The notes: generated by a model not told the origin, from the sequence alone. Positions 39,340 to 64,000 are shown, counted from the stretch's first letter. The stretch is 64,000 bases of DNA from Candidatus Omnitrophota bacterium (GCA_024231025.1 JAAEQW010000256.1:66954-130953), one strand, 5' to 3'. Translations and numbers: made by a program.

Positions 39340-39342
39340 AGT

Positions 39343-40617: not shown

Positions 40618-40654
40618 AAAATGAATAATGAAACCTAAAAAGGGGGGTGAAAAA

Positions 40655-41591: not shown

Positions 41592-41663
41592 GATAAGGTT
41601 GTAGCGATTGCATGCAGGTATAATCTTAGTAGATTATACCTGAAGATTATACCAGGAGGACGA

Positions 41664-42170: not shown

Positions 42171-42966
42171 TAAATTTAAAAAAAGAGTTAGGGCGCAAGC
42201 TATAGCGGAGCTGGCAATTATGGGCAGTTTGATTATGGTTGCCTTCAGTATGATTTTATCTTATGGCCATCGCTTAGACAGAATACAAAACTTAAAAATG
42301 AAAACGTTCAGAGAGGCTCTGCGCAAAGCTTATTATAAAAACAGCACAGTAAACGTTACCAAGCGGGTCGATAGCCGTTCGGTGGATTTATTTAATTTTG
42401 GTAAGGGTCAGCCTTCAACCGCGCAGGCATCGGCGGCGGTAATGTGGCACAAAGGTATGCCGGGTGCGCAAGACACAAATGATGCTGCATTTAGCTTTTA
42501 TAGCATAAATGGTGTATATATTGGAGAGTACGGGTTCGCTGAGACTACTGGGCTTCCTAGGTACCACAAAACAGTTATTGGTGCAACTGGGGCAGAGTCT
42601 GAAATTCATAGTCCGGTGAGCGTTTATCGTGAAGAGTCAAAAAGGTATAGTTTTTATTCTGGAAATAAAGAGAAATCGGAAAGCGAGGATGGCATAGAAA
42701 ACGTTCGCTATGCTGATTTGCGTGACGATCTTGATATAAAAGTTAAAACTCGTTTTGATGCTGCCAAATACGATTCACGATTGGGTCCGGATGATCCCGA
42801 GCAGGAGTCACCTAAATATACACAGCATAGAAAATATGATTTAAAACAAACCGCGGTCTTTGATCCTTTGCTTGATGATGATACAATAACTTACAAAGAT
42901 GTAGAGGATGTCGATAGTGATTATCATGGTATTCATGTTGAAAGAACTCGGCATACGCCAAATTAA
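42163..42966 (+). CDS. TadE-like pseudopilin
   Basis: N-terminus MNSKFKKRVRAQAIAELAIMGSLIMVAF resembles the TadE/TadF N-terminal motif. The start overlaps the previous stop (ATGAATAG). Confidence 0.5.
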   Translation: MNSKFKKRVRAQAIAELAIMGSLIMVAFSMILSYGHRLDRIQNLKMKTFREALRKAYYKNSTVNVTKRVDSRSVDLFNFGKGQPSTAQASAAVMWHKGMPGAQDTNDAAFSFYSINGVYIGEYGFAETTGLPRYHKTVIGATGAESEIHSPVSVYREESKRYSFYSGNKEKSESEDGIENVRYADLRDDLDIKVKTRFDAAKYDSRLGPDDPEQESPKYTQHRKYDLKQTAVFDPLLDDDTITYKDVEDVDSDYHGIHVERTRHTPN

Positions 42967-43199
42967 TGGCAACAAAAATTTTATAAAAATTGGATTGTAA
43001 TTTGTAGTTTGTATATTATAATTTGTTTGTAATTTGTAATTTGTAGTTTGTAAGTTTTAAGTCCGGAAAATTCCGTAAAACGGGAAATCCTTAATTCTTA
43101 TCACTTACGACTTACGACTTATAACTTTACTCACGGGAGGTAAATATCAGTAAAAGAAGGCACAGTAAAAAAGGTTTCAAGAGGTGGGGTCAATCCATT

Positions 43200-44825
43200 T
43201 TGGGTTTTGTTTTTGCCTTTATCGCTTTAATGCTTCTTGTAATCGGCCTTACTCGCATTTGGATATGGTTTAACGCTAATTATGCCGGTCGTGCGGTTGG
43301 TTATCAAAATAGTCGGCTTGTTGCCGGAGGTGGAGAGTTAAGATCGGAAGGTGTTGGCAGTAATGCGAAGTTAGCAGAAGCCTATATGAAGGAAAGTATT
43401 CATGGCGAGCAGGGTTACTACGGCACAGAAGGTTACCTGAAAGACTTCAATCGATTTTTTTTAACTAAGGACTGGGTATTTAGGGGGGTTTCTAGCGGTA
43501 CAATTGATGACGGTCTAAGTGGTGGAATCACCGAAGCTGAGATTAATGATTGTTGTGAGGGTTGTTGTTCGGCTACCTCCTATGATAATGATATCTGCTC
43601 TTGTAAGGATCCCGGTGATTGCGGTGTTGGCGATGATTATGATAGTAATTGCGTTTGCCATGCTCATTGTGCCTGTGATGCTTCGGTTGCGGCCCAAATT
43701 TGGCTCTTAGAGAATCAAGCAGGGCTTTTAATTGAACAGGGAAACTCCCTAGAGGATAATGCAAGGTCATTAAGAAAGGCGGCTGGTGAGTGTGATGACC
43801 CCTGGGAGTTGTGTTTTTGGGGTGATTGGGGCAAAACTCCTCGCGAGCTAAGAAGTGCAGCCGCTGAATTAGACGATATGGCCTTAGAATTGTTTCTTGA
43901 GGCTGGCGCTTGGAAGACTACGTTTCATGAGGGTGATAATCCGGCGCATAATGATCAAGGCTACTATACTTTTTCTGATTATCTAGATCATAGAGCTACA
44001 GTAGATGAAAGTATAATAGGCAAAGGCGGAATCACTGATAGGATGCGCGAATGTTGCAAAATAGATGACGCTCCGTCACAAAAAGAATGCATTAATGCTG
44101 CTCGAACCGAAGCAGGAGATAGCTGTGATAGTTTAGTTTACAACTATGAGCTTGAACTAGTTGGCGAGCAAAGAAAATATCTTGAAAAATTGAGTGATGC
44201 AAGAGAGATCCTTGAGGATTTAGAGCCGGCAGTAACTGAGTGTGGCGTGAGTGCTGCTAATGGGTGTAGATCTGCATGCATGGGCAAGTGTACCACTTTT
44301 TGCCGTGATGCTGAAGGTGTTCCCTATGAATGTGTAGATGACGCCTGTTATCGAAATTGCCTCGGTCCGGTTGATGAGTGCACCCACGGTGCTAATTGCT
44401 ATGAGACGTGTTACCCTATTAGAAAAGAGCAATGTTGCCGTGACTATTGCGGTCCGAATTGTAGCGACGGTAATGGGTGGGGAAGAAATTGCGATAGTGC
44501 AGCTCCAATTGAAGCAAGTAGGCAGCATGAAAATGGCTTTATCGGCGGTTTAATTGGTGATACTGATCCCTCTGATAGTGCTGAGGAAATTATTGGAGCT
44601 TTTATTCCCGCGGCAAAGGATCATCTTGAAACAATCATTAGCGCGAAAGAGGCAATAGCGACCTGTTGCGCACAAGAGGCAGAAGATGCGGAAGAGGCAC
44701 AAGAGTTTGAAATCAATGAATTTAGTGAACAAGTAGAGTGTATAAGTGAAAAATTAGGCAACGCGTTGCTTTCTCCGGAGACATTAAAAAAAGGAGAGTA
44801 TGACGAATTCATGGGTGAGGAGTAA
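43200..44825 (+). CDS. Cys-rich (>40 Cys) large protein with a pilin-like N-terminal TM segment; candidate pilus-associated adhesin or minor pilin
   Basis: The frame is open upstream to 43146 and encodes ..KKGFKRWGQSILGFVFAFIALMLLV after a GGAGG RBS (43136-43140), but there is no ATG; the candidate starts are ATC 43146 or TTG 43200. Cys clusters include CCEGCCSATSYDNDICSCKDPGDCG. Confidence 0.6.
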   Translation: MGFVFAFIALMLLVIGLTRIWIWFNANYAGRAVGYQNSRLVAGGGELRSEGVGSNAKLAEAYMKESIHGEQGYYGTEGYLKDFNRFFLTKDWVFRGVSSGTIDDGLSGGITEAEINDCCEGCCSATSYDNDICSCKDPGDCGVGDDYDSNCVCHAHCACDASVAAQIWLLENQAGLLIEQGNSLEDNARSLRKAAGECDDPWELCFWGDWGKTPRELRSAAAELDDMALELFLEAGAWKTTFHEGDNPAHNDQGYYTFSDYLDHRATVDESIIGKGGITDRMRECCKIDDAPSQKECINAARTEAGDSCDSLVYNYELELVGEQRKYLEKLSDAREILEDLEPAVTECGVSAANGCRSACMGKCTTFCRDAEGVPYECVDDACYRNCLGPVDECTHGANCYETCYPIRKEQCCRDYCGPNCSDGNGWGRNCDSAAPIEASRQHENGFIGGLIGDTDPSDSAEEIIGAFIPAAKDHLETIISAKEAIATCCAQEAEDAEEAQEFEINEFSEQVECISEKLGNALLSPETLKKGEYDEFMGEE

Positions 44826-44840
44826 TGAGGTGACTTTATT

Positions 44841-46259
44841 ATGATGGTATTTTTTTCAAAAAACAAAGCTAATTATCGCAAGGGTCAGATTTTTCCCTTT
44901 TTACTTGCCCTGGTTGTTGTGATTATGATTATGTTAATGATTACAGTTAATTTGGGTCGTATTGGTGTGTTTAAAACCGATGTGTCAAATGCTGCTGATG
45001 CCGGTGCATTGGCCGGTGCAAGTGTATTAAGTGCGACTTTGCTTGAAATGGGTCTTAAGAATGACAGTATTTTTGGTTATGCGTTAACAATGTTTGGCTG
45101 TATTATTGTTGCGATAATTGCTTTTATGTATGTTGCAGCAATTGCTTGTGCGATTTCGCTTTTAATAACAATGTGGTCGGAATACTTTATAGTCAAAGGG
45201 GCCGGTGTTGTTGGTTGGGGAAACGCTAAAAAAACAGCGATCCAATATGCTTTTCAGAATGCCGGTATTGATGAACCGCGGCCCAGCTTTAAGCATTTTT
45301 TAGTTAAGGGCTGCGGGTTCTCTGAAGCCGAAGTCACCGAACTTCCACCGAATACAATTTCTGATCGTTACGATGAATATATGAACCAAAAATCTCGTCG
45401 TTCCCGTGACCACGGACGCAGTGGTTTTGGTAGATTTTTGGCAGACGATGAAAATGGTTTTTGGCGCCACACTATTGCTCCGGGTGATCGTCCGCCTCAC
45501 AAAGTGCACGCTGAATACGCTTGGAATAAAGATGGCACCAATTGCTGGGATGACGGTATTTGTAATAACCAGCCATTTGATAGTTGCCCCACTAGAGATC
45601 GTACTGCTGACTCAAGTGATAATTCAATATCACCTGAGTCAGCCTCAGATTGCATGGATAATTACGACTACAGCGTTAAGGTTGAAGTTAGCGGTGTAAA
45701 AATGTATGGAATTAAAATGTGGAGTTTTTTGGAGGGTGCCGAGCTGGTTACTTGTATGATCAACTATGTTTTAGGTAAGATAAACTGGCCGAGTTGGCTG
45801 GAGTGGCTGGGTAGTATTTTAAAGTTTATTATGTCGATATTTGGTTGGTTTCTTAATAAACTAGTTGCTACAATTTCTCCTTCAGGTTTTCGGCTAATGG
45901 GCGGTGATATAGTACAAACTGCCAAAAGTCCCTTAACAGTAACGGTTATAAAAAGAACAAGAGGTGGGAATGTTGGCTTCTGGAATTTTGTCTATGGTAA
46001 TAGCGATAATGAAGTTAGGGCAAGATCATCCGCGGTTGCCGGCTGGAATGAAAATCCTAATAATCCCGGTTTTGATTTTGAAGGGTGCGGTTGTCGAAGC
46101 ATTATTCCCACAGGAGGGTATACAAATTGTAAGGGGGGGGACTTAAAAGTTACCGGATTGTGTAATATACTCGTTGGTCTTCTTAAGGGTGATGCCGATT
46201 GGCAATATATGAATACAAAATATCATTTATTTGAAACTCGTTTAACTGCGGCGCAATAA
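44841..46259 (+). CDS. TadG-like pilus-associated protein
   Basis: N-terminus RKGQIFPFLLALVVVIMIML...SNAADAGALAGASVLS resembles the Tad_N/TadG N-terminal module. Confidence 0.5.
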   Translation: MMVFFSKNKANYRKGQIFPFLLALVVVIMIMLMITVNLGRIGVFKTDVSNAADAGALAGASVLSATLLEMGLKNDSIFGYALTMFGCIIVAIIAFMYVAAIACAISLLITMWSEYFIVKGAGVVGWGNAKKTAIQYAFQNAGIDEPRPSFKHFLVKGCGFSEAEVTELPPNTISDRYDEYMNQKSRRSRDHGRSGFGRFLADDENGFWRHTIAPGDRPPHKVHAEYAWNKDGTNCWDDGICNNQPFDSCPTRDRTADSSDNSISPESASDCMDNYDYSVKVEVSGVKMYGIKMWSFLEGAELVTCMINYVLGKINWPSWLEWLGSILKFIMSIFGWFLNKLVATISPSGFRLMGGDIVQTAKSPLTVTVIKRTRGGNVGFWNFVYGNSDNEVRARSSAVAGWNENPNNPGFDFEGCGCRSIIPTGGYTNCKGGDLKVTGLCNILVGLLKGDADWQYMNTKYHLFETRLTAAQ

Positions 46260-46261
46260 TT

Positions 46262-47110
46262 ATGGATATAAAAAAGTTAGCCGTGATTTTAAGTTTGTTT
46301 ATTGTTGGTTCGGTTTTTGCGGTGGACTTCCCTATTCCTCAGCCGCCACAAGGGCAAATGATTGACACCCATAGTATTGCTATGGGGGGGATTAATGTTA
46401 CCTCTTATGTTTATAGAAGCAGCAAAAAAAAGAGTGAGTTGGTTGATTACTACAAAGAGTTGTTTGATAAAAAAGAATTCAAACTCATTTTAGATCAAAA
46501 AGATTCCTCACGCGACAAGCGGCTTCTGCGTTATCGGCGCGAAGATTTAGTGATGACAGTTGCGATTTTGCCCAAAGATGGCGAAACTGAAGTTGTAATC
46601 GCAAAGTATATTCAACCTGAAGGAACTGCACCGCCGGAGGAGCGTAAAATGTCTTTTCAGGAAATGCTTGGGCAAATGCCAAAAGAAGACGAGGCCGGGG
46701 GTGATTTGGATGTTGTTCCGCGACCGCCGGATAGTGTGCGCATTCATTCTTATGTTCGAGGAAATGTGGCAGTTATTATTTATAATAGCGCTATTTCAGT
46801 AGAATCGTTAAGGGATTTTTACGATAATCAAATGGGATTGCACGGTTGGAAAAAAAATAAAGATATCGCAACCGGCGAGGTGGCACGTTCTTATAATACT
46901 GAAAAAGGTTTAAAAAAGGCATCGCCGATGGGAATGAGCTTTGCTTCAGATGTAAATGTTGGACAACTTATGCAGGGCGGTCGCAAGTTGCTTTTTCATG
47001 GACGGATGGGTAGTGCCGATATCACCCTATTAAATGCCGGTTCTGAAGATGAACCGCTAACGATAGTAACGATTAATTACAGAGAAGACGAAGAAATATA
47101 CGGAGAGTAG
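46262..47110 (+). CDS. Secreted hypothetical protein
   Basis: Signal peptide MDIKKLAVILSLFIVGSVFA; tightly linked to the TadG-like gene. Confidence 0.5.
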   Translation: MDIKKLAVILSLFIVGSVFAVDFPIPQPPQGQMIDTHSIAMGGINVTSYVYRSSKKKSELVDYYKELFDKKEFKLILDQKDSSRDKRLLRYRREDLVMTVAILPKDGETEVVIAKYIQPEGTAPPEERKMSFQEMLGQMPKEDEAGGDLDVVPRPPDSVRIHSYVRGNVAVIIYNSAISVESLRDFYDNQMGLHGWKKNKDIATGEVARSYNTEKGLKKASPMGMSFASDVNVGQLMQGGRKLLFHGRMGSADITLLNAGSEDEPLTIVTINYREDEEIYGE

Positions 47111-47111
47111 C

Positions 47112-47306
47112 ATGTTGCCAAGAAAGAAAAAATTATCACAAGCTGTAATTGGCTATGCTATTTTATTCTGCCTTATAGTATCAGCTTTGCTTATTGTTGG
47201 CCGCTACGTGAGAAATGCTTTTTCCGGTAGAGTCCGCCAAGCCGGTGATTCATTCGGCAGCGGCGAAGTATACGCCCCCTACGGTCCCGATGCCAGTAGG
47301 GATTAG
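47112..47306 (+). CDS. Small pilin-like protein
   Basis: N-terminus MLPRKKKLSQAVIGYAILFCLIVSALLIV. Confidence 0.55.
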   Translation: MLPRKKKLSQAVIGYAILFCLIVSALLIVGRYVRNAFSGRVRQAGDSFGSGEVYAPYGPDASRD

Positions 47307-47447
47307 AAATAATTATAGAAACCATGCCAGGAAAACGTCGAACCATAAGATTAAAGAATTATAATTACGCCTAAAATGGGATATATTGTGTAACAATATG
47401 CGCGTATAATCGCAAATATTTATTTGGAAGGATAAAAAATAATTGTA

Positions 47448-47675
47448 GGGGCACAGCGTGCTGTGCCCTCAATAAATATGGTAAAATTATTTATGATGAA
47501 TTGTGGATTTAATCCGTAATATCCATTGAATAATTAATATCGTAGGGGCGAATAATTATTCGCCCGTAAAAACGTCTTCCTTACGTAATTAAAATCCGTA
47601 AATATATTATCGATAATCCCATAAATTGGATTAATGATGATGAAAACAATAAAGAGGGCACAGCACGCTGTGCCC
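47448..47675. repeat. Internally deleted RAYT3 remnant bounded by two REP3 palindromes
   Basis: REP3 at 47448-47469 and 47655-47675. A 5' fragment is homologous to 22576-22608, and a 3' fragment (47595-47654) is homologous to 22887-22951. A further palindrome GGGCGAATAATTATTCGCCC lies at 47545-47564. Confidence 0.75.
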
Positions 47676-47847
47676 CTACAGATAATCTCATTAAATAATT
47701 ATAAATCGGTTTATTTTTATTGCCCTTCTTTCACGTTCTTAATTACTCCATTCCCTGTTTTTGCTTTACATCCCACCTCTTCAAAAGTATAATGTAATAA
47801 GACTTGAGGGCTGTTGCAAAATACAATAGCCAATTAATAAATAACCT

Positions 47848-48690
47848 ATGACTACAGCAATTTATTTAGCAGTTTTTGTCTCGGCAGTCCTTATCTTTAA
47901 TGTTATCGCCACTTATTTGTTTACCACTTGGTTTAAATGGCAGGCGAAACAGGCAAAGATGATGACAAACAAGCTGGATGATTCCTTTATCTTTCTTGAA
48001 AAGAAAAAGGTAATTGTCTTAACCGCTGCCCCTTTGATTCTAGGCTTTATTACTTACCTTTTATTAGGTAACATATTTATTGCTATTGCCGGTGGCTCTA
48101 TCGGTTTGGCTGTACCAACACTAATCGCTAATGCTGCAAAACAAAAACGAATTAAGGATTTTCAGGATCAGCTAGTCGACACCTTGATGATTTTTTCTTC
48201 TTCTCTTAAGGGCGGTTTAAGTTTTATTCAAGCGCTGGAGATTGTTTGTGAAGAAATGCCCACTCCAACCAGCCAAGAGTTTGGCCTTATATTAAAGGAA
48301 AATAAGCTTGGTGTGGGTTTAGAGGATTCACTGGAAGGATTGCGCAAACGAATGCCTTTAGAAGAGGTTGGGCTTATTGTGAGTTCGATTTTAGTGGCTA
48401 AAGAAACCGGCGGTGAGTTAACCAGGGTTTTTAGCCGTTTGGTTGAGACCATTCGCGATAATGTTAAATTAAAAGAAAAAATAGCAACGCTTACTTTGCA
48501 AGGTAAATTGCAAGGCTACATTATGGCGTGCTTGCCATTTGTTTTTACCTTTTTCGTTTATAAACAGAATCCGGAGCATTTTAGTGTTATGCTGGAGTCT
48601 CAATTTGGCCAGATGCTTCTTGCTGGTGCGATTGTTTGGCAGATAATTGGTATGGTTTTAATCAGAGTAATGAGTAAATTAAAAGTATGA
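47848..48690 (+). CDS. tadB: Tad pilus inner-membrane platform protein TadB-like (T2SS F domain)
   Basis: T2SSF-type membrane topology; sits next to the tadC-like gene. Confidence 0.7.
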   Translation: MTTAIYLAVFVSAVLIFNVIATYLFTTWFKWQAKQAKMMTNKLDDSFIFLEKKKVIVLTAAPLILGFITYLLLGNIFIAIAGGSIGLAVPTLIANAAKQKRIKDFQDQLVDTLMIFSSSLKGGLSFIQALEIVCEEMPTPTSQEFGLILKENKLGVGLEDSLEGLRKRMPLEEVGLIVSSILVAKETGGELTRVFSRLVETIRDNVKLKEKIATLTLQGKLQGYIMACLPFVFTFFVYKQNPEHFSVMLESQFGQMLLAGAIVWQIIGMVLIRVMSKLKV

Positions 48691-49559
48691 TTTTTGTTGT
48701 AATTTTTGTTTTAATATTGGCGGCTACTTATATGATTATGAGCGGGATTAGCTCTTTTACATATGAGAAGAAGGAGCGTTTTTATGCTCACCTTCCTTCT
48801 AAATCCAAGACGAATATATTTACTACCGGTATTTTTAGAAACATTTCAACGTTGATTAATCGACCGTTTGCCGAGGTGCCTTATTTAAGGAGCATTAATG
48901 CAAAAGCCAAGTTCTTAAAACTTCCTTTTGGGTCGTTAGAGATATTGCTAATGAAAGAGCTTCTAATGGTAGGTGGGGGAGTTGCCGGGTTTATACTTTT
49001 TGAGCCGATGCACGGGGTTATTGGTGCTTTTGTTGGTTTTTTATTGCCTGATTTTGTGGTTAATAGTAAGGTTAATGGCAAAAAGGATGCTCTCTTGCGT
49101 GTATTTCCCGAAACGGTAGACATTATGGATTTGTGTATCGGTGCGGGGTTAGATTTTTTAGCGGCTTTGCGTTGGGTGGTTGAAAAATCAACACCGAGTC
49201 CTTTTATCGAACAGCTCGAGGTAGTTTTGAGCGAAATACAAGTTGGCAAAAGCCGAAGCGAGGCGCTGCGTGATATGGCTAAACGGGTTAAGCTTCCTGA
49301 TATAAATAGTTTTGTGCGAACGATAGTTCAGGCGGAGCGAATGGGTATTTCTATTGAAGAAGCCTTACGTAATTTGTCTGAAGATACACGGATGACCCGC
49401 TTTCAAAGAGGAGAGAGATATGCGATTAAAGCTGGTTTAAAAATGTTGATTCCTCTAATGTTATTTATTCTGCCTGTAATTTTGGTTGTAGTAGCCGGTC
49501 CGGTTATTATTCAATTCACCCAGGGCGATCTTATTCCCGGTTCAGGGGTAATGCAGTGA
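48687..49559 (+). CDS. tadC: Tad pilus inner-membrane platform protein TadC-like (T2SS F domain)
   Basis: Overlapping start; T2SSF domain. Confidence 0.7.
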   Translation: MIFVVIFVLILAATYMIMSGISSFTYEKKERFYAHLPSKSKTNIFTTGIFRNISTLINRPFAEVPYLRSINAKAKFLKLPFGSLEILLMKELLMVGGGVAGFILFEPMHGVIGAFVGFLLPDFVVNSKVNGKKDALLRVFPETVDIMDLCIGAGLDFLAALRWVVEKSTPSPFIEQLEVVLSEIQVGKSRSEALRDMAKRVKLPDINSFVRTIVQAERMGISIEEALRNLSEDTRMTRFQRGERYAIKAGLKMLIPLMLFILPVILVVVAGPVIIQFTQGDLIPGSGVMQ

Positions 49560-54496: not shown

Positions 54497-54527
54497 TTGA
54501 CATTTTACTCATAAAAATGTTATATTT
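54497..54527 (+). promoter_or_regulatory. Sigma-70-like promoter (TTGACA, 17-bp spacer, TTATAT) driving riboswitch copy 2
   Basis: TTGACA at 54497-54502 and TTATAT at 54520-54525. Confidence 0.5.
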
Positions 54528-54532
54528 GTATG

Positions 54533-54615
54533 GTAGCGAAGGGCAAACCTCGAGTAATCGAGTGGCGCAAAGCCACGGGCCCCGAATGTTTTGGGGCAGC
54601 CGGGTTGTGGGTATC
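54533..54615 (+). promoter_or_regulatory. c-di-GMP-I (GEMM) riboswitch-like leader, copy 2, upstream of the 2102-aa gene
   Basis: AGGGCAAACC-TCGAGTAATCGAG (P1 with a GUAA loop) - GGCGCAAAGCC - ACGGGCCCC..GGGGCAGCCGGGTT. Confidence 0.65.
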
Positions 54616-54652: not shown

Positions 54653-57600
54653 ATGAAACAAAAAAGTAATAAAATGGGGAGTGGGGATAGGGGGAGGTTT
54701 TTAAACTTTTCTCTTAGCTCGTTTAAAGGTAAGAAAATAGTGAGTGCGATAGTCGCACTCATTTTTTTATTTAACGTCTGTACCCCTGCGTATGCTTGGC
54801 GTGACGGTAATCATAGCCATACAACTAGCGCTGCAGCTTTTGGTGGCGGAGCGCTCGGCGGACTCGTAACCGGTGTTTTTATTTTGATCGGTAATGGTGG
54901 CCTAACCAGTTGGGGATCGGTAGTTGCCGGTGCTGCGTCTGATATAACCGGAGCGATCATGTACTACGAAAGTTATGACACCTACGATGAGACGATGACC
55001 ATTGGCGGGGAAGAGCTTGATTGGAGTCTTGGCAAAGTTGACATAACGATTACTAAAGGTCAGTTTTGGAGTATGACTGCCGGAATAATTGCTGGCTGTA
55101 TAGTTGGTGTTGTCGGCGGTGTTGCTTCAGGAGTGAAAACCGCAGCCGCTGAAGCAGCTAAAGAAGGCGTGAAAGAAATATCGAGTGAGGCGATCAAAGA
55201 AGTCACAAAAACCGCAACTGACATTGCAGTAGAGACAATGAAGAATGTAGTTGTCGGATCGATGATTGGTGCCGTGGCCGGTGCCGCCGGAGGCGCGATA
55301 GTTGGGGCAATTAGCGATGGTAAGGAAGGCGCCCTTAAAGGCTTGGGAAAAGGTGCTGTTCTTGGTGCCGCGGCGGGGGCAGGCGGTGCGTTACTAACTG
55401 GTGTTTTGAGAGGTATTGAAAAGGTGCTTGCTTCAACGATGGGCGATTCTCTTGCCGGTACGATTGCTGAGAACGTTATTAATCATACTTTGCGCAACGC
55501 TTTAATTAAGCTTCCGGTTGACTTTGCTTGTGCTTTTGGAGCGCTAGTAGTTTCTCGTACCGTTGAAGAAGTGCTAGTTCAAAAACACGACATGGATCGA
55601 ACCCTTGCCGGGATGATTGGTGGCGTTGCCGGAATGGGGGCGCGTTTTCTTACCCAGCCGGTATTAATGCAAACGTGGACCCAGAACAATTATTACATGA
55701 GCAACCGAGGCATTGTGCTTAGCGCAGGTGAGAAAAAGCGACTGGACATGGTTGCGAATTTTAAAAAGACCCTCAAGAAATCCAAGGATAAAATCGAAGT
55801 TGGTCAAATTGACGCCAAAACCGGAGAAGTAACCCAAAGTAAGACCATTAGCGTCTCTCGTCTTGCTGATGCAAAATATATAGGTAGTGGAGTGTTTCAA
55901 TTGGAAAATGGAAGTCAAGTTGACATTAATTCTAACGGCATGAGGGGGTTATCTCCTGAAATAATGAAAGCGGTGAAGGGTTATGCCAACATAGTTGCGA
56001 GGGTGGATCCTTCAATGAGAATAACCGGCGACGTTGCGCGCACCTTTGGCGGAGGCGCGGTGCAGGATTCGTTTTTTGCTCCGATTCATTCGGTGGTGAG
56101 CGTTGGGCCGCGACCGATTATTTCAACAGCAACACAAGTTGCGATATTATATGCTTTGGATTATAAGACGTTTTACGGCCGGGGTGATTCAGAACGCGGC
56201 AAAAAGAAAAATTATCGCAATGCGCTTAAGATGGCGCTTGCGCGCAGCGCAGGTTCGCTTGCTGGTGAGCTGTCGACAGGTTGGTTAACGCAAGCTTATA
56301 ATCCTTGGAGTTCAAGGCCGCAAGATATGGCGGGTTTTAAAGGTTGGGCGCAACATACCGGCAGGGCGGTTGCGGTGGAAAGCGGCGGACTGCTAGCTGA
56401 CGTTGCTTTTGCTCGGATGACTTACGCTTGGAATTTAAATACTGCCTATGGCCTTCAAGGCCTGGTGCATTTGGGAATGAGTAGTCTTGTTGGTGGAACA
56501 TTGGATACCTTATTTAGAGAAGATCGAATGAAAGCCGAGAAAACAGTTTTCGTTGAGGTTAAAGATGAGCCCGAATACGTTGATGAAAAAAAACTTGTTA
56601 AGAAAGAGCCCGAAACGCTCAGCGAAGAAGAACACCGAGAAAGATATAGTGCCGCAAGAGGTTGGGAGCCCGATGAAAACGCGACTAAGCCATCAAAGGG
56701 TATCTACGTTTATACAAACACTAAAACCGATGAAACAAAAACTTATAAAAAGCAGCACAGCGTGGTGGATGTTCCTAAAGGCTATGAATCGGCCTATTCG
56801 AAGGCAAGCGTTGGCGCGCCACGAGTGGATATTTTCTTTATTTGTGTAGGAATGGATTTTGCTAATAACTTCAAAGAAGCATCAATTAACGCGGCACTGA
56901 TGCCTTATCCGTATCGTTCAACCGGCACTGGAATGGGGGCAATGGCCGCAAATTTTGAAAATCAAGATCGGTTTACTCGTCGCATAGCAATGCATATGCG
57001 CGGGGTTGGCCCAGTTCAAGCAAGGGCAATCGAGGCGGGCCAGGCTCTAAGCGGCCAGGCACGGGGACGTTTTGCTAATAGTTTCGGTTATTCAATTGCT
57101 AATACATGGCTTCCGTATCGGTACCAATCTTACGCGGCATTTATGCCGGACGTTGACGCGCACTTAGATGAAAACGTTTCTACGCCGGGTAGAGAATCTG
57201 AAAAGCTCTATAAGGATCGTAAGGAAACGAAAGAACAGCGCCAAAAAGTAAGACAAGAAACTCAGGAAGTAGAGAAAAAAATAGCAACAATTGAACTCTC
57301 CAACTTAGATAAAAAAAGTGATGATACTTTAGTTGCGTTACAAAAACGTTTAATTGAGCTAAAGGTACAAGATAAAGCATTGGGGAATAAACTTGCCCAA
57401 AATAAAAAAGATATTCAAAATCTCCGTACCAAAACGGTCAATGCGTACGGTGATTTGTCGCCAATATATTTTAATGGCGGGATCGTGAATTATTCAGTTG
57501 ACCGGCGTATCTCTGATTATGCGGTGGTAAGAGAATCAATTCAGTTTACCGGCGAAAGATCCGCTGAAGAAAAAGAAAACGCAATGATTCACAACGAAGA

Positions 57601-60600
57601 TCCTTCGCAATATAGATCAATTGAGGTAGAGGCAAAAGCAACGCTAGAGAGGGCGGGTGATGATGAGGAAATTGAAATATCTTCTTTTCAAGGAACGTAT
57701 AATCCTTCATTGGCCGGCCGACCGTTGGCAGTTGAGCACTACAGCACACAATTATCACATGGCGTTAGTGTTAATAACTTAGCCGGTGCTCTTGAAGGCG
57801 CTGAGCATCCGTTGATTGTGGGTGATGGCCTTACCATAACTAAGCCCGATCAACTTGATGAGGCTAAAAACAGGCTTTATGATATTATGGCAGACGATCC
57901 GGACGCGCCGATATATTATAAGGAGTTAAAAGCAGAGAAAGACTTAAACGATCAGGTAGTCGAGAAGCGGGCACAAGAGCAAGTTAAAGGTGCGAAAGCT
58001 TCAACTGAGAAAGTTAAGCCGATAATCCTGGTTACCGACAAGAAAAAGCGAGCCATCGCCGAAGAGATGACGGGTATTGTTGAGCGGCTTAATGGCGCGG
58101 TAAAGGGTGACGAAAACGCGAAACGTAATTTCGGTTCGGGTTTAATTGGCGTAATGGCCCTAAGAAGACAGGGTAATTCTTATTATCGGGCAACATGGGT
58201 TTTGGGTGAGGGCGATGAAAAGAAAGCAAAAGTTGCCAGAGTAATCGATGATTTAGGGGTTAGCCGTGGCGGTGGTATAAAATTGCAACATTCAGATAAG
58301 CCGTCTTTAACTGCCCGCACCACACGCGATATTTACGGCAGAAGTATTGAAACAAAAGAATACGGTTGGCATTATGATGTGAAAGAAGAAGAGATTGGGG
58401 TAAGTGATCCTCAAAGTAAAAGAAAGCCGGGTACAACAACACCTGAGAAGAAAAAAGTATCGGGTAACGGCGGGTATCGCCTTGTATCCCGTGATTTAGA
58501 AGGTGATGATAAGGTGTTAAAAGTCACTAAGCACGTTTATAAGGATTCGAAAGAAGCAAGAGAGGCTGCGATTGAGCTCAGTAAAAAGATGCCTAATTGG
58601 CATATTCAAATATACGAGAACGACGAAATTGCCGAAATCGAAGACGACAAGTTTCTTTTGGTTGAGGATTCCCCGGAACATTCTTTGATTGCGGCCATTT
58701 CGCCAGAAGCCGCGGCGGCAGGCCTAATCCCTTCTAAAATTCCTGATGATTATAAAATAAGAGCAGCTTATCCAAGAACCGAGACCACCGGAACCTGGAA
58801 AAACGTTGAAGTAGCAACCACCGAATACTATTATGGGCCGATGGGCCAGGCGATGTCAATAAGAAGCGAGGATCCAATAAAGTCACAACGCCGCAAAAAA
58901 GATTATAGTGCGGCGAATATAGTTGACGTTAGGCAATTAACTTTGCGTAAGCACGAGGATGAGACCGGGGCAATTAGAAAAGTAGAGCTCATCGAGAATG
59001 TTGATGGTGAGGAAAAAGTATTAAGTGAATTTAGAGGGAAAGAGGGAGAAAATCCTTTTGATGAAGCAGTAGCGTATGCGGCTACGCTCCAAAGCCCTGA
59101 TCCTACGATGGAGACAGTAGATTATGATTCGACAGGCGATCAACATTATATTGTGATGCGTGATCCAAAGACACAAAAGATAACTGGATTTGCCACGAAA
59201 GATTCTTATGCTAAGCATAAGGACGCATACGCTAAAGCCAATGAGCTTATTGATGGGCTTCTCCAAGGAGGTGGCGATGAAGCTTTACCTAAGGATACGA
59301 TTTTTGAAATATACATGGCTCATGAAATAGGTAAAACCAAAGACGGTCAACTGGTTATTTTAGATGATGAAGCAAGCGATGCCGCTTTGGCAGAAGCGCC
59401 AGTTGGAAAATATGCTTTGAAACCAAGCAGCCTTACCGGCAGAAAAGCGCCTAGTCAGGGGCCGGATGATCACAGCCCCGACGCGGTTGATTTTGGCAAG
59501 GCAACAGTTCAAGCGGCATCTGTTGCTAAAGGTGATGACCCGAACGTTACCTATGCGATAAGCATTTACGACACAAAAAGTGATCTTGAGTTTGTTAAGT
59601 CGTTAGGTGATGGCGGCTGGACGCGTTCGCCGTATGTTGGCGGTCCTAGCGGGCGATTAATTGCCCAAGACATACACCATGGTCCGCAGCTCTTATCAAA
59701 AAACGTACCGTATAATCCTAACATGCCCAGCAACCTTTTAAAAGTTGTGCGGATACATCTTGAAAATAGATTTCTCCAAGAAGCCGGCTTAAAAGAATTG
59801 GCAGTTGATGACATAGACGTTGACACAGAAGAAATTGTTGATGAGATGTATGATCGATTTGTTAAGAAAGCGCCGAAGTTTAAAGATCGGGTACTTGATG
59901 TGCGAGGCGCCAAAGGCAATAAGGAAGAGGCTTATAGCAAAGTAATGAGCAATTCGAATTACAATTTAGGCAAAATAGCTAACGAAACGTATAATGAAGT
60001 AGTTAATGAGCGCTTTAAAAGGGCGGGCCTAAACGATCAGGCTTGGAATACAATGATGCAAAGGCCAATAACAAGAATGGAGAGTTTTCAGTTTTTTGAA
60101 AATAAAAATATTGCCGGCAAAACATATTCGCTTCCAACCTGGGGCGCTAAGGCGGGGTATAATGCCGCTCGTCGTCCCAATAGGGATGTGGTTTATGATG
60201 CCCTAAGGCCGAATACAATGTTAAGCGCAACCGAAGATTATGTGCTACAATATGACGCAGGCGATCGGGTGATTGACATAACTGTTGTAGCCGGTGAAAC
60301 CATTGAAGATGCCTTAGCTAGAGAGGATATTTTTGTGTCACGCAAAGAGTATACCGCAAGCAAAGATGGGCGCAAATTTGCCGTTAATAAAGATAAAACT
60401 TTCAATGAGGCTGAGTATGAGGAAACCGGATTTTTATCGAAGCCTAAAGAGCGTAACATTGTGCTTGGCGGCGACAAAGCGATAAGGGTTGGACCGTCTC
60501 AGAGCCCACAAGAAGCCTTGAAAGAGCACGAGATAATCGGCACAACTTTTATTAGTGAAGAGGATTTTGTAAATAGAGTTGTTGCGCCTAATGAGGAGAT

Positions 60601-60961
60601 GTTTACTGTGATGGTTGATGGCGAACTGCCAAGCAGTGCTGATGGTGGAATGCGCTTTGTGAAGAGTAGTTTCTATGATTATCGTCCCGAACAAGTAAGA
60701 GCTGCTCATGCTCAACGCATCGAAGCGGCTAAAAAGCGTGGCGATAGCGCGGCGCTCAATTATTGGAAGAGCTCGGCGGTGATAGATGTTGATGGAGTAG
60801 CAATGGTGGTTGAACCCGGTGAAGCCGGGGTTAACCCAATGTATCGCTATGAAATTCAAACCTTATTCGACGATTACATGGATACAATGATTGGCATAAC
60901 CCGTAGTGGTGCAGGAACTGGACCAACGATACAGATGCGGCCGAATGGGATCGGAAAATAG
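54653..60961 (+). CDS. Giant membrane-anchored protein (2102 aa). The N-terminus carries Gly/Ala-rich glycine-zipper-like hydrophobic segments; a coiled-coil region lies mid-protein.
   Basis: Single 6.3-kb ORF. Segments such as GGGALGGLVTGVFILIGNGG and IGAVAGAAGGAIVGAI; no recognisable enzymatic motif. Confidence 0.75.
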   Translation: MKQKSNKMGSGDRGRFLNFSLSSFKGKKIVSAIVALIFLFNVCTPAYAWRDGNHSHTTSAAAFGGGALGGLVTGVFILIGNGGLTSWGSVVAGAASDITGAIMYYESYDTYDETMTIGGEELDWSLGKVDITITKGQFWSMTAGIIAGCIVGVVGGVASGVKTAAAEAAKEGVKEISSEAIKEVTKTATDIAVETMKNVVVGSMIGAVAGAAGGAIVGAISDGKEGALKGLGKGAVLGAAAGAGGALLTGVLRGIEKVLASTMGDSLAGTIAENVINHTLRNALIKLPVDFACAFGALVVSRTVEEVLVQKHDMDRTLAGMIGGVAGMGARFLTQPVLMQTWTQNNYYMSNRGIVLSAGEKKRLDMVANFKKTLKKSKDKIEVGQIDAKTGEVTQSKTISVSRLADAKYIGSGVFQLENGSQVDINSNGMRGLSPEIMKAVKGYANIVARVDPSMRITGDVARTFGGGAVQDSFFAPIHSVVSVGPRPIISTATQVAILYALDYKTFYGRGDSERGKKKNYRNALKMALARSAGSLAGELSTGWLTQAYNPWSSRPQDMAGFKGWAQHTGRAVAVESGGLLADVAFARMTYAWNLNTAYGLQGLVHLGMSSLVGGTLDTLFREDRMKAEKTVFVEVKDEPEYVDEKKLVKKEPETLSEEEHRERYSAARGWEPDENATKPSKGIYVYTNTKTDETKTYKKQHSVVDVPKGYESAYSKASVGAPRVDIFFICVGMDFANNFKEASINAALMPYPYRSTGTGMGAMAANFENQDRFTRRIAMHMRGVGPVQARAIEAGQALSGQARGRFANSFGYSIANTWLPYRYQSYAAFMPDVDAHLDENVSTPGRESEKLYKDRKETKEQRQKVRQETQEVEKKIATIELSNLDKKSDDTLVALQKRLIELKVQDKALGNKLAQNKKDIQNLRTKTVNAYGDLSPIYFNGGIVNYSVDRRISDYAVVRESIQFTGERSAEEKENAMIHNEDPSQYRSIEVEAKATLERAGDDEEIEISSFQGTYNPSLAGRPLAVEHYSTQLSHGVSVNNLAGALEGAEHPLIVGDGLTITKPDQLDEAKNRLYDIMADDPDAPIYYKELKAEKDLNDQVVEKRAQEQVKGAKASTEKVKPIILVTDKKKRAIAEEMTGIVERLNGAVKGDENAKRNFGSGLIGVMALRRQGNSYYRATWVLGEGDEKKAKVARVIDDLGVSRGGGIKLQHSDKPSLTARTTRDIYGRSIETKEYGWHYDVKEEEIGVSDPQSKRKPGTTTPEKKKVSGNGGYRLVSRDLEGDDKVLKVTKHVYKDSKEAREAAIELSKKMPNWHIQIYENDEIAEIEDDKFLLVEDSPEHSLIAAISPEAAAAGLIPSKIPDDYKIRAAYPRTETTGTWKNVEVATTEYYYGPMGQAMSIRSEDPIKSQRRKKDYSAANIVDVRQLTLRKHEDETGAIRKVELIENVDGEEKVLSEFRGKEGENPFDEAVAYAATLQSPDPTMETVDYDSTGDQHYIVMRDPKTQKITGFATKDSYAKHKDAYAKANELIDGLLQGGGDEALPKDTIFEIYMAHEIGKTKDGQLVILDDEASDAALAEAPVGKYALKPSSLTGRKAPSQGPDDHSPDAVDFGKATVQAASVAKGDDPNVTYAISIYDTKSDLEFVKSLGDGGWTRSPYVGGPSGRLIAQDIHHGPQLLSKNVPYNPNMPSNLLKVVRIHLENRFLQEAGLKELAVDDIDVDTEEIVDEMYDRFVKKAPKFKDRVLDVRGAKGNKEEAYSKVMSNSNYNLGKIANETYNEVVNERFKRAGLNDQAWNTMMQRPITRMESFQFFENKNIAGKTYSLPTWGAKAGYNAARRPNRDVVYDALRPNTMLSATEDYVLQYDAGDRVIDITVVAGETIEDALAREDIFVSRKEYTASKDGRKFAVNKDKTFNEAEYEETGFLSKPKERNIVLGGDKAIRVGPSQSPQEALKEHEIIGTTFISEEDFVNRVVAPNEEMFTVMVDGELPSSADGGMRFVKSSFYDYRPEQVRAAHAQRIEAAKKRGDSAALNYWKSSAVIDVDGVAMVVEPGEAGVNPMYRYEIQTLFDDYMDTMIGITRSGAGTGPTIQMRPNGIGK

Positions 60962-61089: not shown

Positions 61090-61249
61090 GTACGAAAAGG
61101 CAAACCCCGAGTGATCGGGGGGCGCAAAGCCACGGGTCCTGAAGTTAGGTGTATTCTCGCAGATTGCCTAAGGGTGATCTGTCTGTGCACATTTAGTTTG
61201 ACGATAGCCGGGTTACCGAATATTATTGATATTTAGTAACCCGGTTTTC
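61090..61249 (+). promoter_or_regulatory. c-di-GMP-I (GEMM) riboswitch-like element, copy 3, ending in an intrinsic terminator
   Basis: AGGCAAACC-CCGAGTGATCGGGG (P1 with a GUGA GNRA loop) - GGCGCAAAGCC - ACGGGTCC..AGCCGGGTTACCGAA. Terminator CCGGGTTAC..GTAACCCGG plus TTTT at 61208-61249. Confidence 0.7.
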
Positions 61250-61524: not shown

Positions 61525-61678
61525 AGCGGTACGAAAAGGCAAACCTCGAGTGATCGGGGGGCGCAAAACCACGGGTCCCAAAATTACGGTTAAAGTAAGA
61601 AATAGCTTTTGGCTGGATTTTGCATTAGGGATAGCCGGGTTACCGAATATTATTGATATTTAGTAACCCGGTTTTTTA
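61525..61678 (+). promoter_or_regulatory. c-di-GMP-I (GEMM) riboswitch-like element, copy 4, with a terminator-type expression platform
   Basis: Same core as copy 3 (GCAAACCTCGAGTGATCGGGGGGCGCAAAACCACGGGTCC). Terminator 61635-61678. Confidence 0.7.
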
Positions 61679-61802: not shown

Positions 61803-64000
61803 ATGAGAGAAAAACTTAACAATAGAGCGAACTGTGGGGGAAAGGGGGAGGTTTTGAGCCTCTCAATTCCGTTAAAAGAAGAGAACCTCAAAGTTTCCGT
61901 ATCCTTCAAACAGGACACTCCCAACCCCGATGAACCGTACGTAAGCGCTTGGCAAAAGTTTAAAAAGTCACCGCTTTTTAAAGTTGTTGCTTTCACGGTG
62001 CTGTTTATTTTTGTTTTTGAAGACATAACTCGTGCCGCTGGTTTAAGCGCGCCAATTATTCCTGTTCAATCATCTCCAATGATGATGGCTAGCGCTCCTT
62101 TGCCGTTGCGCTTGCTGCCTTTGGTTCATGCTTCTTTTGAAGACGGGGACAGTTCGGGCTGGTCGGCAGTCAACGATTACCAAGATTTTCAAACAACTCC
62201 CTACAGCTACGATGTTTCAATGAGCGGATACCAAATGCAATCTAATAATTTGAGTGCTCAGGACCTGCAACATTCCGAGAATATTCCGCTGGGAGTTACT
62301 TACACCACCCATGGTGCTAATGGTCAGGTTGAATGGATGGGTCAAAGCGTTGCTGGAAAACAGATAATTAACACCTACACCGCTGCTGATGGTCTTGAAA
62401 GGACCACCGGCATAAACATATATTATGACGACCCGGCTAGTATCCAGCAGGATGGTGGCGTGGTTACTTCGGCTCGTTTAGGCGAAGTTTTAATGACACC
62501 TGAGGGCGGCGAAGTCAAAATTGGTTTTAGCGGAAACAGTTATTGGAAGTCTGAAGACGGTGCGCAAGGCTCTACCGCGTTTAAGGTGTCTAAAGAGGAC
62601 GGAGCAGCAACGTTATGGATCGCAGAAAATGGTGGGCTCAGATTTCATGGTAAGCCAACGCAGGACTCTTTTTACCAAATGGATCACAGCGCGATTCGTG
62701 GTGGTGATTTTTCTAGTGCGCCGACTACTTCGTGGAACGCGATCATGGATACGGTTCGCAATCCTGATCCGATAAGAAAACAAGGTGGCGGTTACACCCC
62801 CCATAGCGGTGCTGATCACATTTCAACATTTTCTGTTGTACCGGTTGCCGGTCAAGATGGTAGCGGATTGCAACACATGATTCCGTTTCAAACGAAAGAG
62901 ATGGATAAGTCGGTAATGGCAATTGATATTACCGATGCCGGAGTAACCGTTGGTGCCGGTAGCACGATTGGTTGGGGTTATGGCCCTGGAAAGTCGGTAA
63001 ACGTGGTAGATAATTTTGGCTTTAGGACCAAAGGCGTGGGGATAAAAAACGGGATTGTTGACGGCTCTGTTAGTTTTCATCCGCAAGCAATGCCGGGGCA
63101 GTCTTTGGTTATGCAGACACATAATTTAACCGCGATTAACACCGGTAGAAGTGACCTTTCCTGGGTTGCACGTACTTATGAGACAAATGCTTCCGGCGGT
63201 TTTAGTGATACAACAGCGTACGTTGAATTGGAGGATCACTTTAGCATTGATTCGAACATTGACGGAGCGCTTTATGTGAAAGACTTAAATAAGGCAGCAA
63301 GGGGAGGACAGTCGAATTACGGTGATATTATAAGTAAGAGATTTGATACAAACCAAGTTGGTCATTTGAAAATCACCGAATTTAAAGCAGATACTCAAGG
63401 GTATATGCGGGCAATCGTTGGTCGAGAAGGCCAATACATTGGTGCTCAGGGGATAGATGTAATGCAAAACCGAGTCGGACTCACCGGAGCTGTTAACCGT
63501 GAAGCCGAATACAATAAAACAACGGATATTCTGGATGCGCCAGCGGTGGCTACTTTTGGGAATCTAACCAACAATACCGGTTCATTTGCGGCTAATGACC
63601 CTGACGAATATATAACGTTTACTCCTTATGCTAAATCGCTTGCCCTTGAAGACGGAGCGAAAATTACCTTGCTGGATCCAATTGGTGATGACGCCGATAA
63701 AATTCATTTTATGAACCTAACGGCAAAAGATAACCATGGTTTTATTGACGGTGATCTTATAACTATTGATTACCGTGCCGATAGCGGGATTAGATTAGAA
63801 AATAGTAACACGAGGAGAGAGCTGGTTAATTTTAGAGACATTAATCACGTGGTAACAGTTATCAACCGAGATGTTACGGAGTTGCAGGGGTTTTCTTCAA
63901 TTAAGGTGGGGGCCGAATTTACGCTTTTGAATAACTTAGTTGACGGCGAAGTTGAATATGGAGAAGTTATTAACGCGCCGGTGCACGAAATTGGCAAAAC
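61803..64000 (+). CDS. Large secreted or membrane-anchored protein, 5' partial; it continues beyond the window and is absent from the ORF track
   Basis: ATG 61803 opens a frame with no stop through 64000 (more than 730 codons). There is a signal-anchor VVAFTVLFIFVF, and it lies downstream of riboswitch copy 4. Confidence 0.6.
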   Translation, partial: MREKLNNRANCGGKGEVLSLSIPLKEENLKVSVSFKQDTPNPDEPYVSAWQKFKKSPLFKVVAFTVLFIFVFEDITRAAGLSAPIIPVQSSPMMMASAPLPLRLLPLVHASFEDGDSSGWSAVNDYQDFQTTPYSYDVSMSGYQMQSNNLSAQDLQHSENIPLGVTYTTHGANGQVEWMGQSVAGKQIINTYTAADGLERTTGINIYYDDPASIQQDGGVVTSARLGEVLMTPEGGEVKIGFSGNSYWKSEDGAQGSTAFKVSKEDGAATLWIAENGGLRFHGKPTQDSFYQMDHSAIRGGDFSSAPTTSWNAIMDTVRNPDPIRKQGGGYTPHSGADHISTFSVVPVAGQDGSGLQHMIPFQTKEMDKSVMAIDITDAGVTVGAGSTIGWGYGPGKSVNVVDNFGFRTKGVGIKNGIVDGSVSFHPQAMPGQSLVMQTHNLTAINTGRSDLSWVARTYETNASGGFSDTTAYVELEDHFSIDSNIDGALYVKDLNKAARGGQSNYGDIISKRFDTNQVGHLKITEFKADTQGYMRAIVGREGQYIGAQGIDVMQNRVGLTGAVNREAEYNKTTDILDAPAVATFGNLTNNTGSFAANDPDEYITFTPYAKSLALEDGAKITLLDPIGDDADKIHFMNLTAKDNHGFIDGDLITIDYRADSGIRLENSNTRRELVNFRDINHVVTVINRDVTELQGFSSIKVGAEFTLLNNLVDGEVEYGEVINAPVHEIGK

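Follow-up and report, generated by a model that had tools for sequence, protein, structure and literature searches.

A conserved giant protein encoded upstream of a supergiant gene in Candidatus Omnitrophota: a candidate glycine-zipper envelope protein with c-di-GMP riboswitch aptamers at its locus

Omnitrophota are tiny, probably predatory bacteria, and few known proteins are as large as their supergiants. We analysed a stretch of 64,000 nucleotides (nt) from a Candidatus Omnitrophota bacterium (GCA_024231025.1 JAAEQW010000256.1:66954-130953; the window) and in it a gene for a protein of 2102 amino acids (aa), here called giant A, which is the conserved upstream partner of an archaeovorin-type supergiant gene and lies downstream of a locus resembling the tight adherence (Tad) and type II secretion systems (T2SS). 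Giant Omnitrophota envelope proteins are a known kind, as is the control of surface structures by riboswitches for cyclic dimeric guanosine monophosphate (c-di-GMP). The giant-A protein family, its partnership with the supergiant and the riboswitch wiring are without prior description in the libraries and papers searched. Judging from sequence, we propose with a probability of roughly 0.55 that giant A is a Sec-exported, zipper-anchored giant envelope protein, a partner of the supergiant and of the Tad attachment apparatus that is induced by c-di-GMP.

The position of the gene is conserved together with its neighbours. The housekeeping genes of the window (ilvBNC, leuA, aroE, aroC, mnmE and folE) are followed by the Tad/T2SS-like locus, and on the 3' side of this by a PsbP-like gene, DAGK, two UbiA-family genes (minus strand), the giant-A gene and an open reading frame (ORF) from 61803. 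This last ORF shares 30% identity over 734 aa with the start of the 19,762-aa ORF at the related locus L083, and is homologous to the N-termini of the 12,946-, 19,762- and 11,961-aa ORFs found 3' of giant-A relatives (gene orders in Table 1). The locus in the window is the one that West-Roberts et al. (bioRxiv 10.1101/2023.11.21.568195) described at Omnitrophota giant genes, where class-III signal peptides, rcpC, Rotamase_2 and a T2SS-like system lie on the upstream side and PilZ genes downstream. Neither their text nor that of Seymour et al. 2023 (PMC10066038) mentions the giant-A family or the riboswitches, the 2026 complete-genome preprint (bioRxiv 10.64898/2026.06.07.730766) makes no mention of the intermediate giant-A gene or the riboswitches, and our literature search found no paper linking Omnitrophota giant genes to riboswitches. 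The supergiant or archaeovorin class is defined by an ORF of more than 20 kb, a C39 or S8 peptidase, SecA-DEAD-like domains and many transmembrane helices. With 6.3 kb and none of those domains, the giant-A gene is a neighbour of that class and not a member. The first-pass annotation, which was made from the sequence alone, had placed the protein in an unknown type; this stands as far as library matches go, and can now be narrowed to the partner that regularly precedes the Omnitrophota supergiant gene.

With aa 301-1500 as the query, HMMER run exhaustively over 1.84 billion representatives returned 27 relatives (E = 1e-56 to 2e-6), which are 1.3 to 3.8 thousand aa long except for P0026 at 460 aa. 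Wherever an organism is named, the entry is a "hypothetical protein" from Candidatus Omnitrophota; the exceptions are one metagenome-assembled genome (MAG) labelled only "bacterium" and relative P0012, which is named after its M23 domain. From these sequences the family is apparently specific to Omnitrophota. BLAST mapping and alignments showed the conserved blocks to be collinear from residue 13 to residue 2090, with 35-45% identity between members in the N-terminal module (N-module, aa ~13-170). We define the family by the N-module, block B and block C in collinear order and by a position between UbiA/Tad genes and a supergiant ORF; the window protein has both the order and the position. A word-indexed homology search with the whole protein returned only the window protein itself, and its alignment-based versions (A1, A3) came back empty, probably through low-complexity candidates swamping the list. 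Scanning genome and metagenome contigs by pattern, again with the entire protein, turned up no relatives, and a back-translated DNA pattern for ALIFL[LF]NxCxPAWA matched only 5 metagenome loci. The ketol-acid reductoisomerase of the window has its best matches, at 67-69% identity, in MAGs among which Omnitrophota are commonest, and its sequence suggests that the source is probably an Omnitrophota lineage without a close reference genome.

The c-di-GMP connection rests on aptamers in the DNA itself. What had been noticed in the first pass as a riboswitch-like leader is a full-length c-di-GMP-I aptamer covering all 87 model positions, 41 nt upstream of the ATG and just behind a promoter-like site (Table 1). 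In all, the window holds four c-di-GMP aptamers of one clan (at 39019, 54532, 61090 and 61528), and from the aptamer before the Flp pilin run the Tad pilins, too, appear to be under riboswitch control. Giant A is preceded by a c-di-GMP-I aptamer in the window and at L084, L085, L086 and L087; none was found there at L081-L083, L088 or L089-L092 (Rfam, with relaxed scans for L081-L083). Between giant A and the supergiant, a c-di-GMP-I-GGC aptamer is present at L081, L082, L083 and L093, and the junction in the window has a tandem pair. At least one c-di-GMP-I-type aptamer occurs in the gene unit at 9 of 12 distinct related loci, which bears out the earlier suggestion of a c-di-GMP link. At L084, L085 and L087 and in both supergiant leaders of the window, the 3' strand of the aptamer (GCCGGGYURCC) is at the same time the 5' arm of a strong terminator hairpin with a U-run behind it (z = -2.4 to -6.9). 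In this classic ON arrangement, ligand binding would block termination. The terminators of the tandem leaders are nearly identical (CCGGGTTACC...GTAACCCGG plus a T-run), and for the giant-A leader of the window only a weak alternative pairing of the aptamer 5' strand with the U-rich 54620-54636 is predicted. The same window also contains, at 10581-12023 (+), the gene of a protein with GAF and HD_5 (HD-GYP-type) domains, likely a c-di-GMP phosphodiesterase by its domain content.

The N-terminus combines a signal peptide with a glycine zipper. By inspection, residues 24-48 have the make-up of a Sec signal peptide with the features expected for signal peptidase I, namely a basic n-region (K24-K28, KGKK), a hydrophobic core (IVSAIVALIFLF) and an AXA site at -3/-1 (A46-Y-A48). 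The family consensus is ALIFLFNxCxPAWA followed, after the cleavage point, by REGNYG, in which F38, P45, A48, R50 and G52 are invariant. That the Cys in FLFNxC might mark a lipoprotein was considered and rejected, the lipobox being non-canonical and the Cys absent from several relatives. Behind this signal-peptide-like segment (aa 29-48), the hydrophobic Gly/Ala segments of the window protein lie at aa 61-84, 140-161, 199-217, 234-252 and 283-301, and the two peptide strings quoted in the first-pass annotation, GGALGGLVTGVFILIGNGG and GAVAGAAGGAIVGAI, were located at aa 65-83 and 206-220. Counted in successive 100-aa blocks from the N-terminus, Gly plus Ala come to 28, 23 and 40%. Between aa 49 and 340 there are 18 GxxxG motifs, as against 8.0 +/- 2.4 in 2000 composition-preserving shuffles, and 56 [GAS]xxx[GAS] motifs, as against 38.5 +/- 3.9; the density of GxxxG is 6.2 per 100 aa there and 0.57 in the remaining protein. 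Since both counts exceed those of the shuffles, the i/i+4 periodicity goes beyond composition, and small-xxx-small has a median z-score of 2.9 among family members. The positions of G66 and G70 are small in 25 of 25 sequences, and the ladder G136-S140-G144-G148-G152-G156, six to seven helical turns long, is small in 21-25 of 25. Defined as (G,A,S)xxxGxxx(G,S,T) set within a hydrophobic helix, a glycine zipper is thus present beyond composition and is conserved. The Pfam Gly-zipper families PF13441, PF13488 and PF05433 had no match in the window protein even at E <= 1, and relative P0002 has Pfam Gly-zipper matches that are sub-threshold only. Of the glycine-zipper region of ~300 aa proposed in the first pass, the Gly/Ala richness, the excess of GxxxG and a conserved ladder were borne out; conservation across the family is limited to two helices (aa 59-80 and 135-161).

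The linker that follows, which in the window protein makes up the remainder of the Gly/Ala-rich region, is highly variable in length and low in complexity (Ala, Glu, Thr, Ser) across the family, and the hydrophobicity of its extra zipper segments is not conserved in most relatives. Then come two helical blocks, a long helical hairpin or coiled coil and a large C-terminal part (Table 1). Searches of Pfam, NCBIfam and PHROGs with the window protein gave no meaningful match, and PDB sequence searches with the window protein and two family profiles (A1, A3) gave none. For these libraries the first-pass statement that the remaining ~1800 aa are without recognisable motifs holds; it fails within the family itself, where blocks are conserved. 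Of the approaches recommended at that stage, remote homology search and structure prediction yielded the 27 relatives and a pair of models by AlphaFold2 (AF2) without a PDB match. With the family alignment, AF2 modelled aa 380-930 as mostly helical, the helices having a predicted local distance difference test score (pLDDT) of 70-89 and a long helical hairpin standing at the end. The model of the N-module shows the signal helix, a helical hairpin (59-80 / 84-106), a small beta-hairpin and a long helix (135-169), with residues 60-150 at a pLDDT of 60-88. Foldseek of both models against PDB gave nothing better than E = 0.5, and generic helical hairpins only. A phage tape-measure reading, prompted by the Gly-rich hydrophobic segments, was rejected on the chromosomal housekeeping genes and Tad locus around the gene and on zero PHROG match.

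Table 1. Features of the window by nucleotide position (aa numbers where so marked), with domains of two relatives and gene orders at related loci.
Feature	Position	Strand	Remarks
Tad/T2SS-like locus	31437..49559	+	rotamase, RcpC, secretin, CpaE-CpaF fusion, Flp-type pilins, TadE/G-like, TadB, TadC
c-di-GMP-I aptamer before Flp pilin run	39019..39114	+	42.5 bits
At least six small Flp-type genes with class-III signal peptides	39163-41591	+	e.g. MLIRKKAQGILEYTLLLGAIIAVVV; starts like MLIRKKAQGILEY
Sigma-70-like promoter	54497..54526	+	TTGACA, 18-nt spacer, TG-TATATT; 11/12 consensus positions; consensus match only
c-di-GMP-I aptamer (RF01051), giant-A leader	54532..54612	+	full model 1-87; 57.7 bits vs gathering score 35; E = 1.1e-8
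Giant-A gene	54653..60961	+	ATG start, 2102 aa; alternative in-frame ATG at 54674
G-rich Shine-Dalgarno-like tract ATGGGGAGTGGGGATAGGGGGAGG	54674..54697	+	degenerate copy of GGGGNNARGGGGGAR motif
Signal-peptide h- and c-regions (IVSAIVALIFLFNVCTPAYA)	54737..54796	+	predicted cleavage between AYA and W; read by inspection
11-bp hairpin and T7 run within signal-peptide codons	54739..54773	+	conserved; synonymous changes in relatives compensate
Zipper helix 1, aa 61-80	54833..54892	+	small residues at 62/66/70/74; family FxxGALxGxVT
Motif GSxASDxxGxxMYYxxYxxYGET, aa 88-114	54914..54994	+	conserved; second helix of hairpin and aromatic loop
Zipper helix 2, aa 133-161	55049..55135	+	family motif (S/T)KGQFWSMxAG
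Variable Gly/Ala/Glu-rich linker, aa 162-340	55136..55672	+	extra hydrophobic zipper segments aa 199-220, 234-252, 283-301
Conserved helical block B, aa 457-628	56021..56536	+	GPRPxxS, YxTxYG, YxNxxKMAxA, NPW, HLxxSS..D..FRxD
Conserved helical block C, aa 726-833	56828..57151	+	DFxNNF, RSxGTG, QDRF, G.xPxQA, SYAAFxP
Long helical hairpin or coiled coil, aa ~840-929	57170..57439	+	K/E/Q-rich; AF2 helices, model residues 461-504, 512-550
C-terminal ~1150 aa with family-conserved islands	57473..60922	+	tail aligned to aa 2090; no library match
C-terminal island GGIVxYxVxR	aa 941-952
C-terminal island TYxPSxAGxP	aa 1015-1032
C-terminal island RTxxDxYGR..T..Y	aa 1220-1242		YD-like
C-terminal island YYGPxG	aa 1391-1407
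C-terminal island GPNxxY..SPYxGPSxR..DIxxGP	aa 1629-1681
First tandem aptamer 3' of giant-A gene, c-di-GMP-I-GGC (RF03167)	61090..61221	+	terminator hairpin overlaps aptamer 3' strand, z = -5.8
Second tandem aptamer, c-di-GMP-I	61528..61647	+	overlapping terminator, z = -6.9
Partner supergiant gene, 5' end	61803..64000	+	runs off window; behind tandem riboswitches
OmpA-like domain in P0005	aa 1113-1208		C-terminal end; P0005/P0013 E = 3e-15 and 2e-19
OmpA-like domain in P0013	aa 1052-1136		C-terminal end
Gene order at L083			TadB, TadC, PsbP, UbiA, giant A, 19,762-aa ORF
Gene order at L081			UbiA, giant A, 12,946-aa ORF
Gene order at L088			TadB/C, giant A, 11,961-aa ORF
Gene order at L087			giant A, ORF > 4,062 aa starting 3 nt later
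Gene order at L084			DAGK, UbiA, giant A with M23, C39-peptidase-domain protein

Several relatives carry domains that bear on the location of the family. P0005 and P0013, the two shortest, both have the zipper N-module and a C-terminal OmpA-like domain; P0012 has a Peptidase_M23 domain near its C-terminus (E = 2e-10) and P0014 a HopBA1/Tiki-superfamily segment. OmpA-like modules bind peptidoglycan and M23 modules cut it. Since the OmpA, M23 and Tiki modules act outside the cytoplasm and the cleavable signal peptide is conserved, the bulk of the family would be periplasmic or at the surface, which supports the envelope location given in the first-pass annotation. We therefore picture the following course of events. 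High c-di-GMP would fold the aptamer that is present in the leader and, if the window behaves like its relatives, sequester the terminator strand so that transcription proceeds, and the Flp pilin cluster and the supergiant, with c-di-GMP aptamers of their own, would be induced together with giant A. The protein would be exported across the inner membrane by Sec and, from its sequence, cleaved after the AYA at residue 48. The two conserved zipper helices, whose pattern is observed, would pack tightly, probably as oligomers, and hold the N-terminus in a membrane. The helical B-C domain and the coiled coil may then form a stalk in the periplasm or at the surface, the C-terminal part of ~1150 aa likewise being extracytoplasmic, and, while the cell attaches to host or prey, giant A would anchor, scaffold or help to deploy the supergiant protein and the Tad machinery.

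A number of observations weigh against this proposal. No terminator or sequestered ribosome-binding site is recognisable after the giant-A aptamer of the window (z = +0.68), and the ON sign proposed for this copy is therefore taken over from the relatives; four of the 12 related loci are without an aptamer upstream of giant A or elsewhere in the unit. Hydrophobicity is only marginal in the zipper segments (rough Hessa-type sums between +1.2 and +2.8 kcal/mol), which may therefore not be stable transmembrane helices, and in several relatives the signal peptide alone passes the hydrophobicity threshold. Under the positive-inside rule, the stretch rich in Lys/Arg at aa 336-400 (12 K/R vs 6 D/E) would point to the cytoplasm if an odd number of spans precedes it, the topology here being judged from crude hydropathy and charge counts that are too coarse to decide. 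The window protein itself has no OmpA-like (PF00691) or M23 (PF01551) domain in Pfam, Foldseek found no structural relative in PDB, and the overall confidence of the AF2 models is moderate to low (mean pLDDT of 65.6 for aa 380-930 and 54.5 for the N-module).

Marginal hydrophobicity is also what would be expected of "latent" membrane-inserting helices, and giant A might accordingly be a secreted pore-forming or wall-attacking effector. It would leave the cell by Sec and possibly a T2SS/Tad-like secretin, insert its zipper helices into the membrane of prey or host as do VacA or the translocators of type III secretion systems, and act with its C-terminal part on the target wall. In many relatives the signal peptide is the sole constitutive-looking transmembrane segment, the modules that vary between relatives are enzyme-like (M23, Tiki/HopBA1), a secretin-containing system adjoins the gene, and degradation of the prey cell wall has been proposed for the Tad/giant locus (bioRxiv 10.1101/2023.11.21.568195). 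However, the OmpA-like modules of the two shortest relatives suggest tethering to peptidoglycan and not release, the C-terminal regions keep their order and are largely conserved from member to member, where toxin tips would be polymorphic, and there was no match to known pore-formers among PDB sequences or by Foldseek. We regard an effector as possible, though on balance unlikely.

A classical surface adhesin, the narrower of the readings in the first-pass annotation, is more doubtful still; it would be a long fibre outside the cell, anchored by its N-terminus and binding to the surface of the host. Co-regulation with the Flp pilins via c-di-GMP aptamers would suit it, and a part in adhesion has been proposed for giant proteins of Omnitrophota (PMC10066038). 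In the window protein, however, Pfam showed no adhesin, Ig-like, cadherin, discoidin or dockerin domain, and self-comparison gave no self-hits and hence no internal repeats (nor is there a paralogue within the window). The tandem repeats and adhesin domains of repetitive giant adhesins (RTX/LapA/Bap) are thus lacking, and the modelled part consists of helical bundles and not of beta-rich repeats.

About equally doubtful is a membrane-anchored scaffold that faces the cytoplasm, in which the N-terminal hydrophobic segments would cross the inner membrane an odd number of times and leave the remainder of ~1750 aa inside, for example as an assembly platform for supergiant export. The K/R-rich aa 336-400 come directly after the last hydrophobic segments, as such a topology would predict, and many long Omnitrophota proteins are predicted to be transmembrane-anchored with their bulk in the cytoplasm (bioRxiv 10.64898/2026.06.07.730766). 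Against this stand the OmpA-like and M23 modules of relatives, which act on peptidoglycan and so outside the cytoplasm, and the conservation of the AXA cleavage site and of the mature N-terminus (RxGNxG).

A pseudogene or an assembly artefact, the outcome by which the first-pass annotation would have fallen, is very improbable: the leader is without the terminator and the Shine-Dalgarno (SD)-TTG start of relatives and four homopolymers of 7-8 bases lie within the ORF, but the frame is open over 6.3 kb at 45% GC, relative synonymous codon usage follows that of neighbouring housekeeping genes (r = 0.83; off-frame control -0.01), the window has no ambiguous bases, and relatives are collinear with the protein up to aa 2090 of 2102. 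The 2102-aa ORF had been given exactly in its coordinates and length. GC content is 43-45% at 54000-64000, the giant and supergiant region, as against 36-40% across most of the window, and at third codon positions it is 0.40 in the giant-A gene as against 0.34 in reference genes; amino-acid composition accounts for part of the raised GC, and a distinct evolutionary history is possible.

The zipper-anchored envelope protein that we favour can be set beside four known systems. With the Omnitrophota giant or archaeovorin-type genes (bioRxiv 10.1101/2023.11.21.568195; PMC10066038) giant A shares the phylum, the Tad/T2SS-like locus (rotamase, RcpC, secretin, ATPase, GspF-like, pilins with class-III signals), poor annotation, and a signal peptide with hydrophobic helices. 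Unlike them it is ten times shorter (2.1 vs more than 10 thousand aa), lacks C39, S8 and SecA-DEAD domains, and has a gene of its own, set between secretion locus and supergiant. For work on the function, export and expression conditions of Omnitrophota supergiants, giant A offers a conserved and far smaller partner that is realistic to express and study.

Regulons of c-di-GMP-I riboswitches for surface structures include the adhesin CD2831 and pilA1 in Clostridioides difficile and gbpA in Vibrio cholerae. As in these, a GEMM-I aptamer leads genes for pili and for large envelope or surface proteins, with a terminator-type ON arrangement in giant-A relatives. The differences are the other phylum, the new protein family, the tandem aptamers before a gene of more than 30 kb, and an expression platform that is unrecognisable for giant A in the window. 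Aptamers ahead of the pilins, the partner and the supergiant amount to a concrete regulatory input, with which the timing and manner of the switch-on become testable.

Glycine-zipper membrane proteins include the VacA N-terminus, the zippers of MscL/KcsA type and the Gly-zipper_Omp/YMGG lipoproteins (SlyB, YiaD), YiaD-type proteins being Gly-zipper plus OmpA. Giant A resembles them in its family-conserved (G/A/S)xxxGxxxG ladder over 6-7 helical turns, and its two shortest relatives resemble YiaD in combining the zipper N-module with a C-terminal OmpA. In contrast to the lipoproteins, giant A has no lipobox and no conserved Cys, is more than ten times larger and has family-specific helical domains. 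Such a very regular conserved zipper could inform how huge polypeptides anchor in or cross bacterial envelopes. Giant size, an envelope role and a c-di-GMP link are shared with the LapA/RTX and Bap-like adhesins; repeats, retention module and Ca-binding repeats are not, and where LapA/RTX adhesins have a C-terminal signal for type I secretion and are regulated by LapD/LapG proteolysis, giant A has a Sec signal peptide and a riboswitch.

Two elements lie within the 5' coding region. The GGGGNNARGGGGGAR motif, with a TTG 5 nt after its AAGGGGG core, occurs at the 5' ends of relatives and supergiant genes; the copy in the giant-A gene of the window is degenerate and has no TTG. In the form GGGGNNA(A/G)GGGGGA(A/G) it was found eight times in 238 kb, in every case on the coding strand where a giant-A or supergiant gene begins (61836-61855; L082-L088), with the TTG 5 nt 3' of the core in five of the eight. 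The motif is translated in differing reading frames (GGKGE, GERGN, and GDRGR in the degenerate window copy, which is outside the eight) and the constraint on it therefore acts at the nucleotide level. The TTG at this distance suggests that the motif and the TTG are the real ribosome-binding site and start, and that annotated N-termini are possibly too long. The second element is a hairpin at the codons (M/V)SAxxALI, present at L084-L092 and followed by a run of U5-7 at several loci. Among 11 sequences 95.5% of cells are paired, as against 88.4 +/- 1.9 when shuffled (2/500 shuffles), with 2 covarying pairs; the covariation is at third codon positions (AGT/GCA vs AGC/GCG; ATG/CTC vs ATC/CTG). 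It may be a translation-coupled attenuator or pause element, with protein-level constraint on the same codons as a confound. Taken furthest, giant A would be a dedicated anchor or conduit that deploys supergiants of 10-40 thousand aa on ultra-small predatory Omnitrophota, the Flp pilins, giant A and the supergiant would form one c-di-GMP riboswitch regulon, and, as a second layer of control acting early in elongation, the SD-like G-tract with the covarying hairpin/U-run would abort or pause untranslated, untargeted transcripts; we offer this as a speculation that is improbable as a whole.

Between the UbiA-like and giant genes there are repeated elements at ~53820-53965 and 54255-54285, with two copies of GGGATCGGTACGTGTCCCCGGAAGC and a related inverted copy, and a palindrome, GGGCACAGCG(T/C)GCTGTGCCC, that occurs twice and resembles a repetitive extragenic palindromic (REP) element or a terminator. 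At L086 (~870-1390), an inserted element of ~600 nt that has inverted repeats at its termini and resembles a miniature inverted-repeat transposable element splits the riboswitch, start and G-rich motif from the giant-A signal-peptide codons. The PsbP-like gene, an unusual companion of a Tad locus, directly follows TadC in the window (49556-50080, +) and keeps this position at L083 (2174-2737). A second large gene of the window, at 474-7727 (+), encodes a protein of 2417 aa that shows no similarity to giant A and carries two HATPase_c-type domains (aa ~648-717 and 1704-1809), and two IS200-like Y1 transposase genes (7972-8691 and 21174-21887, +) lie among the housekeeping genes.

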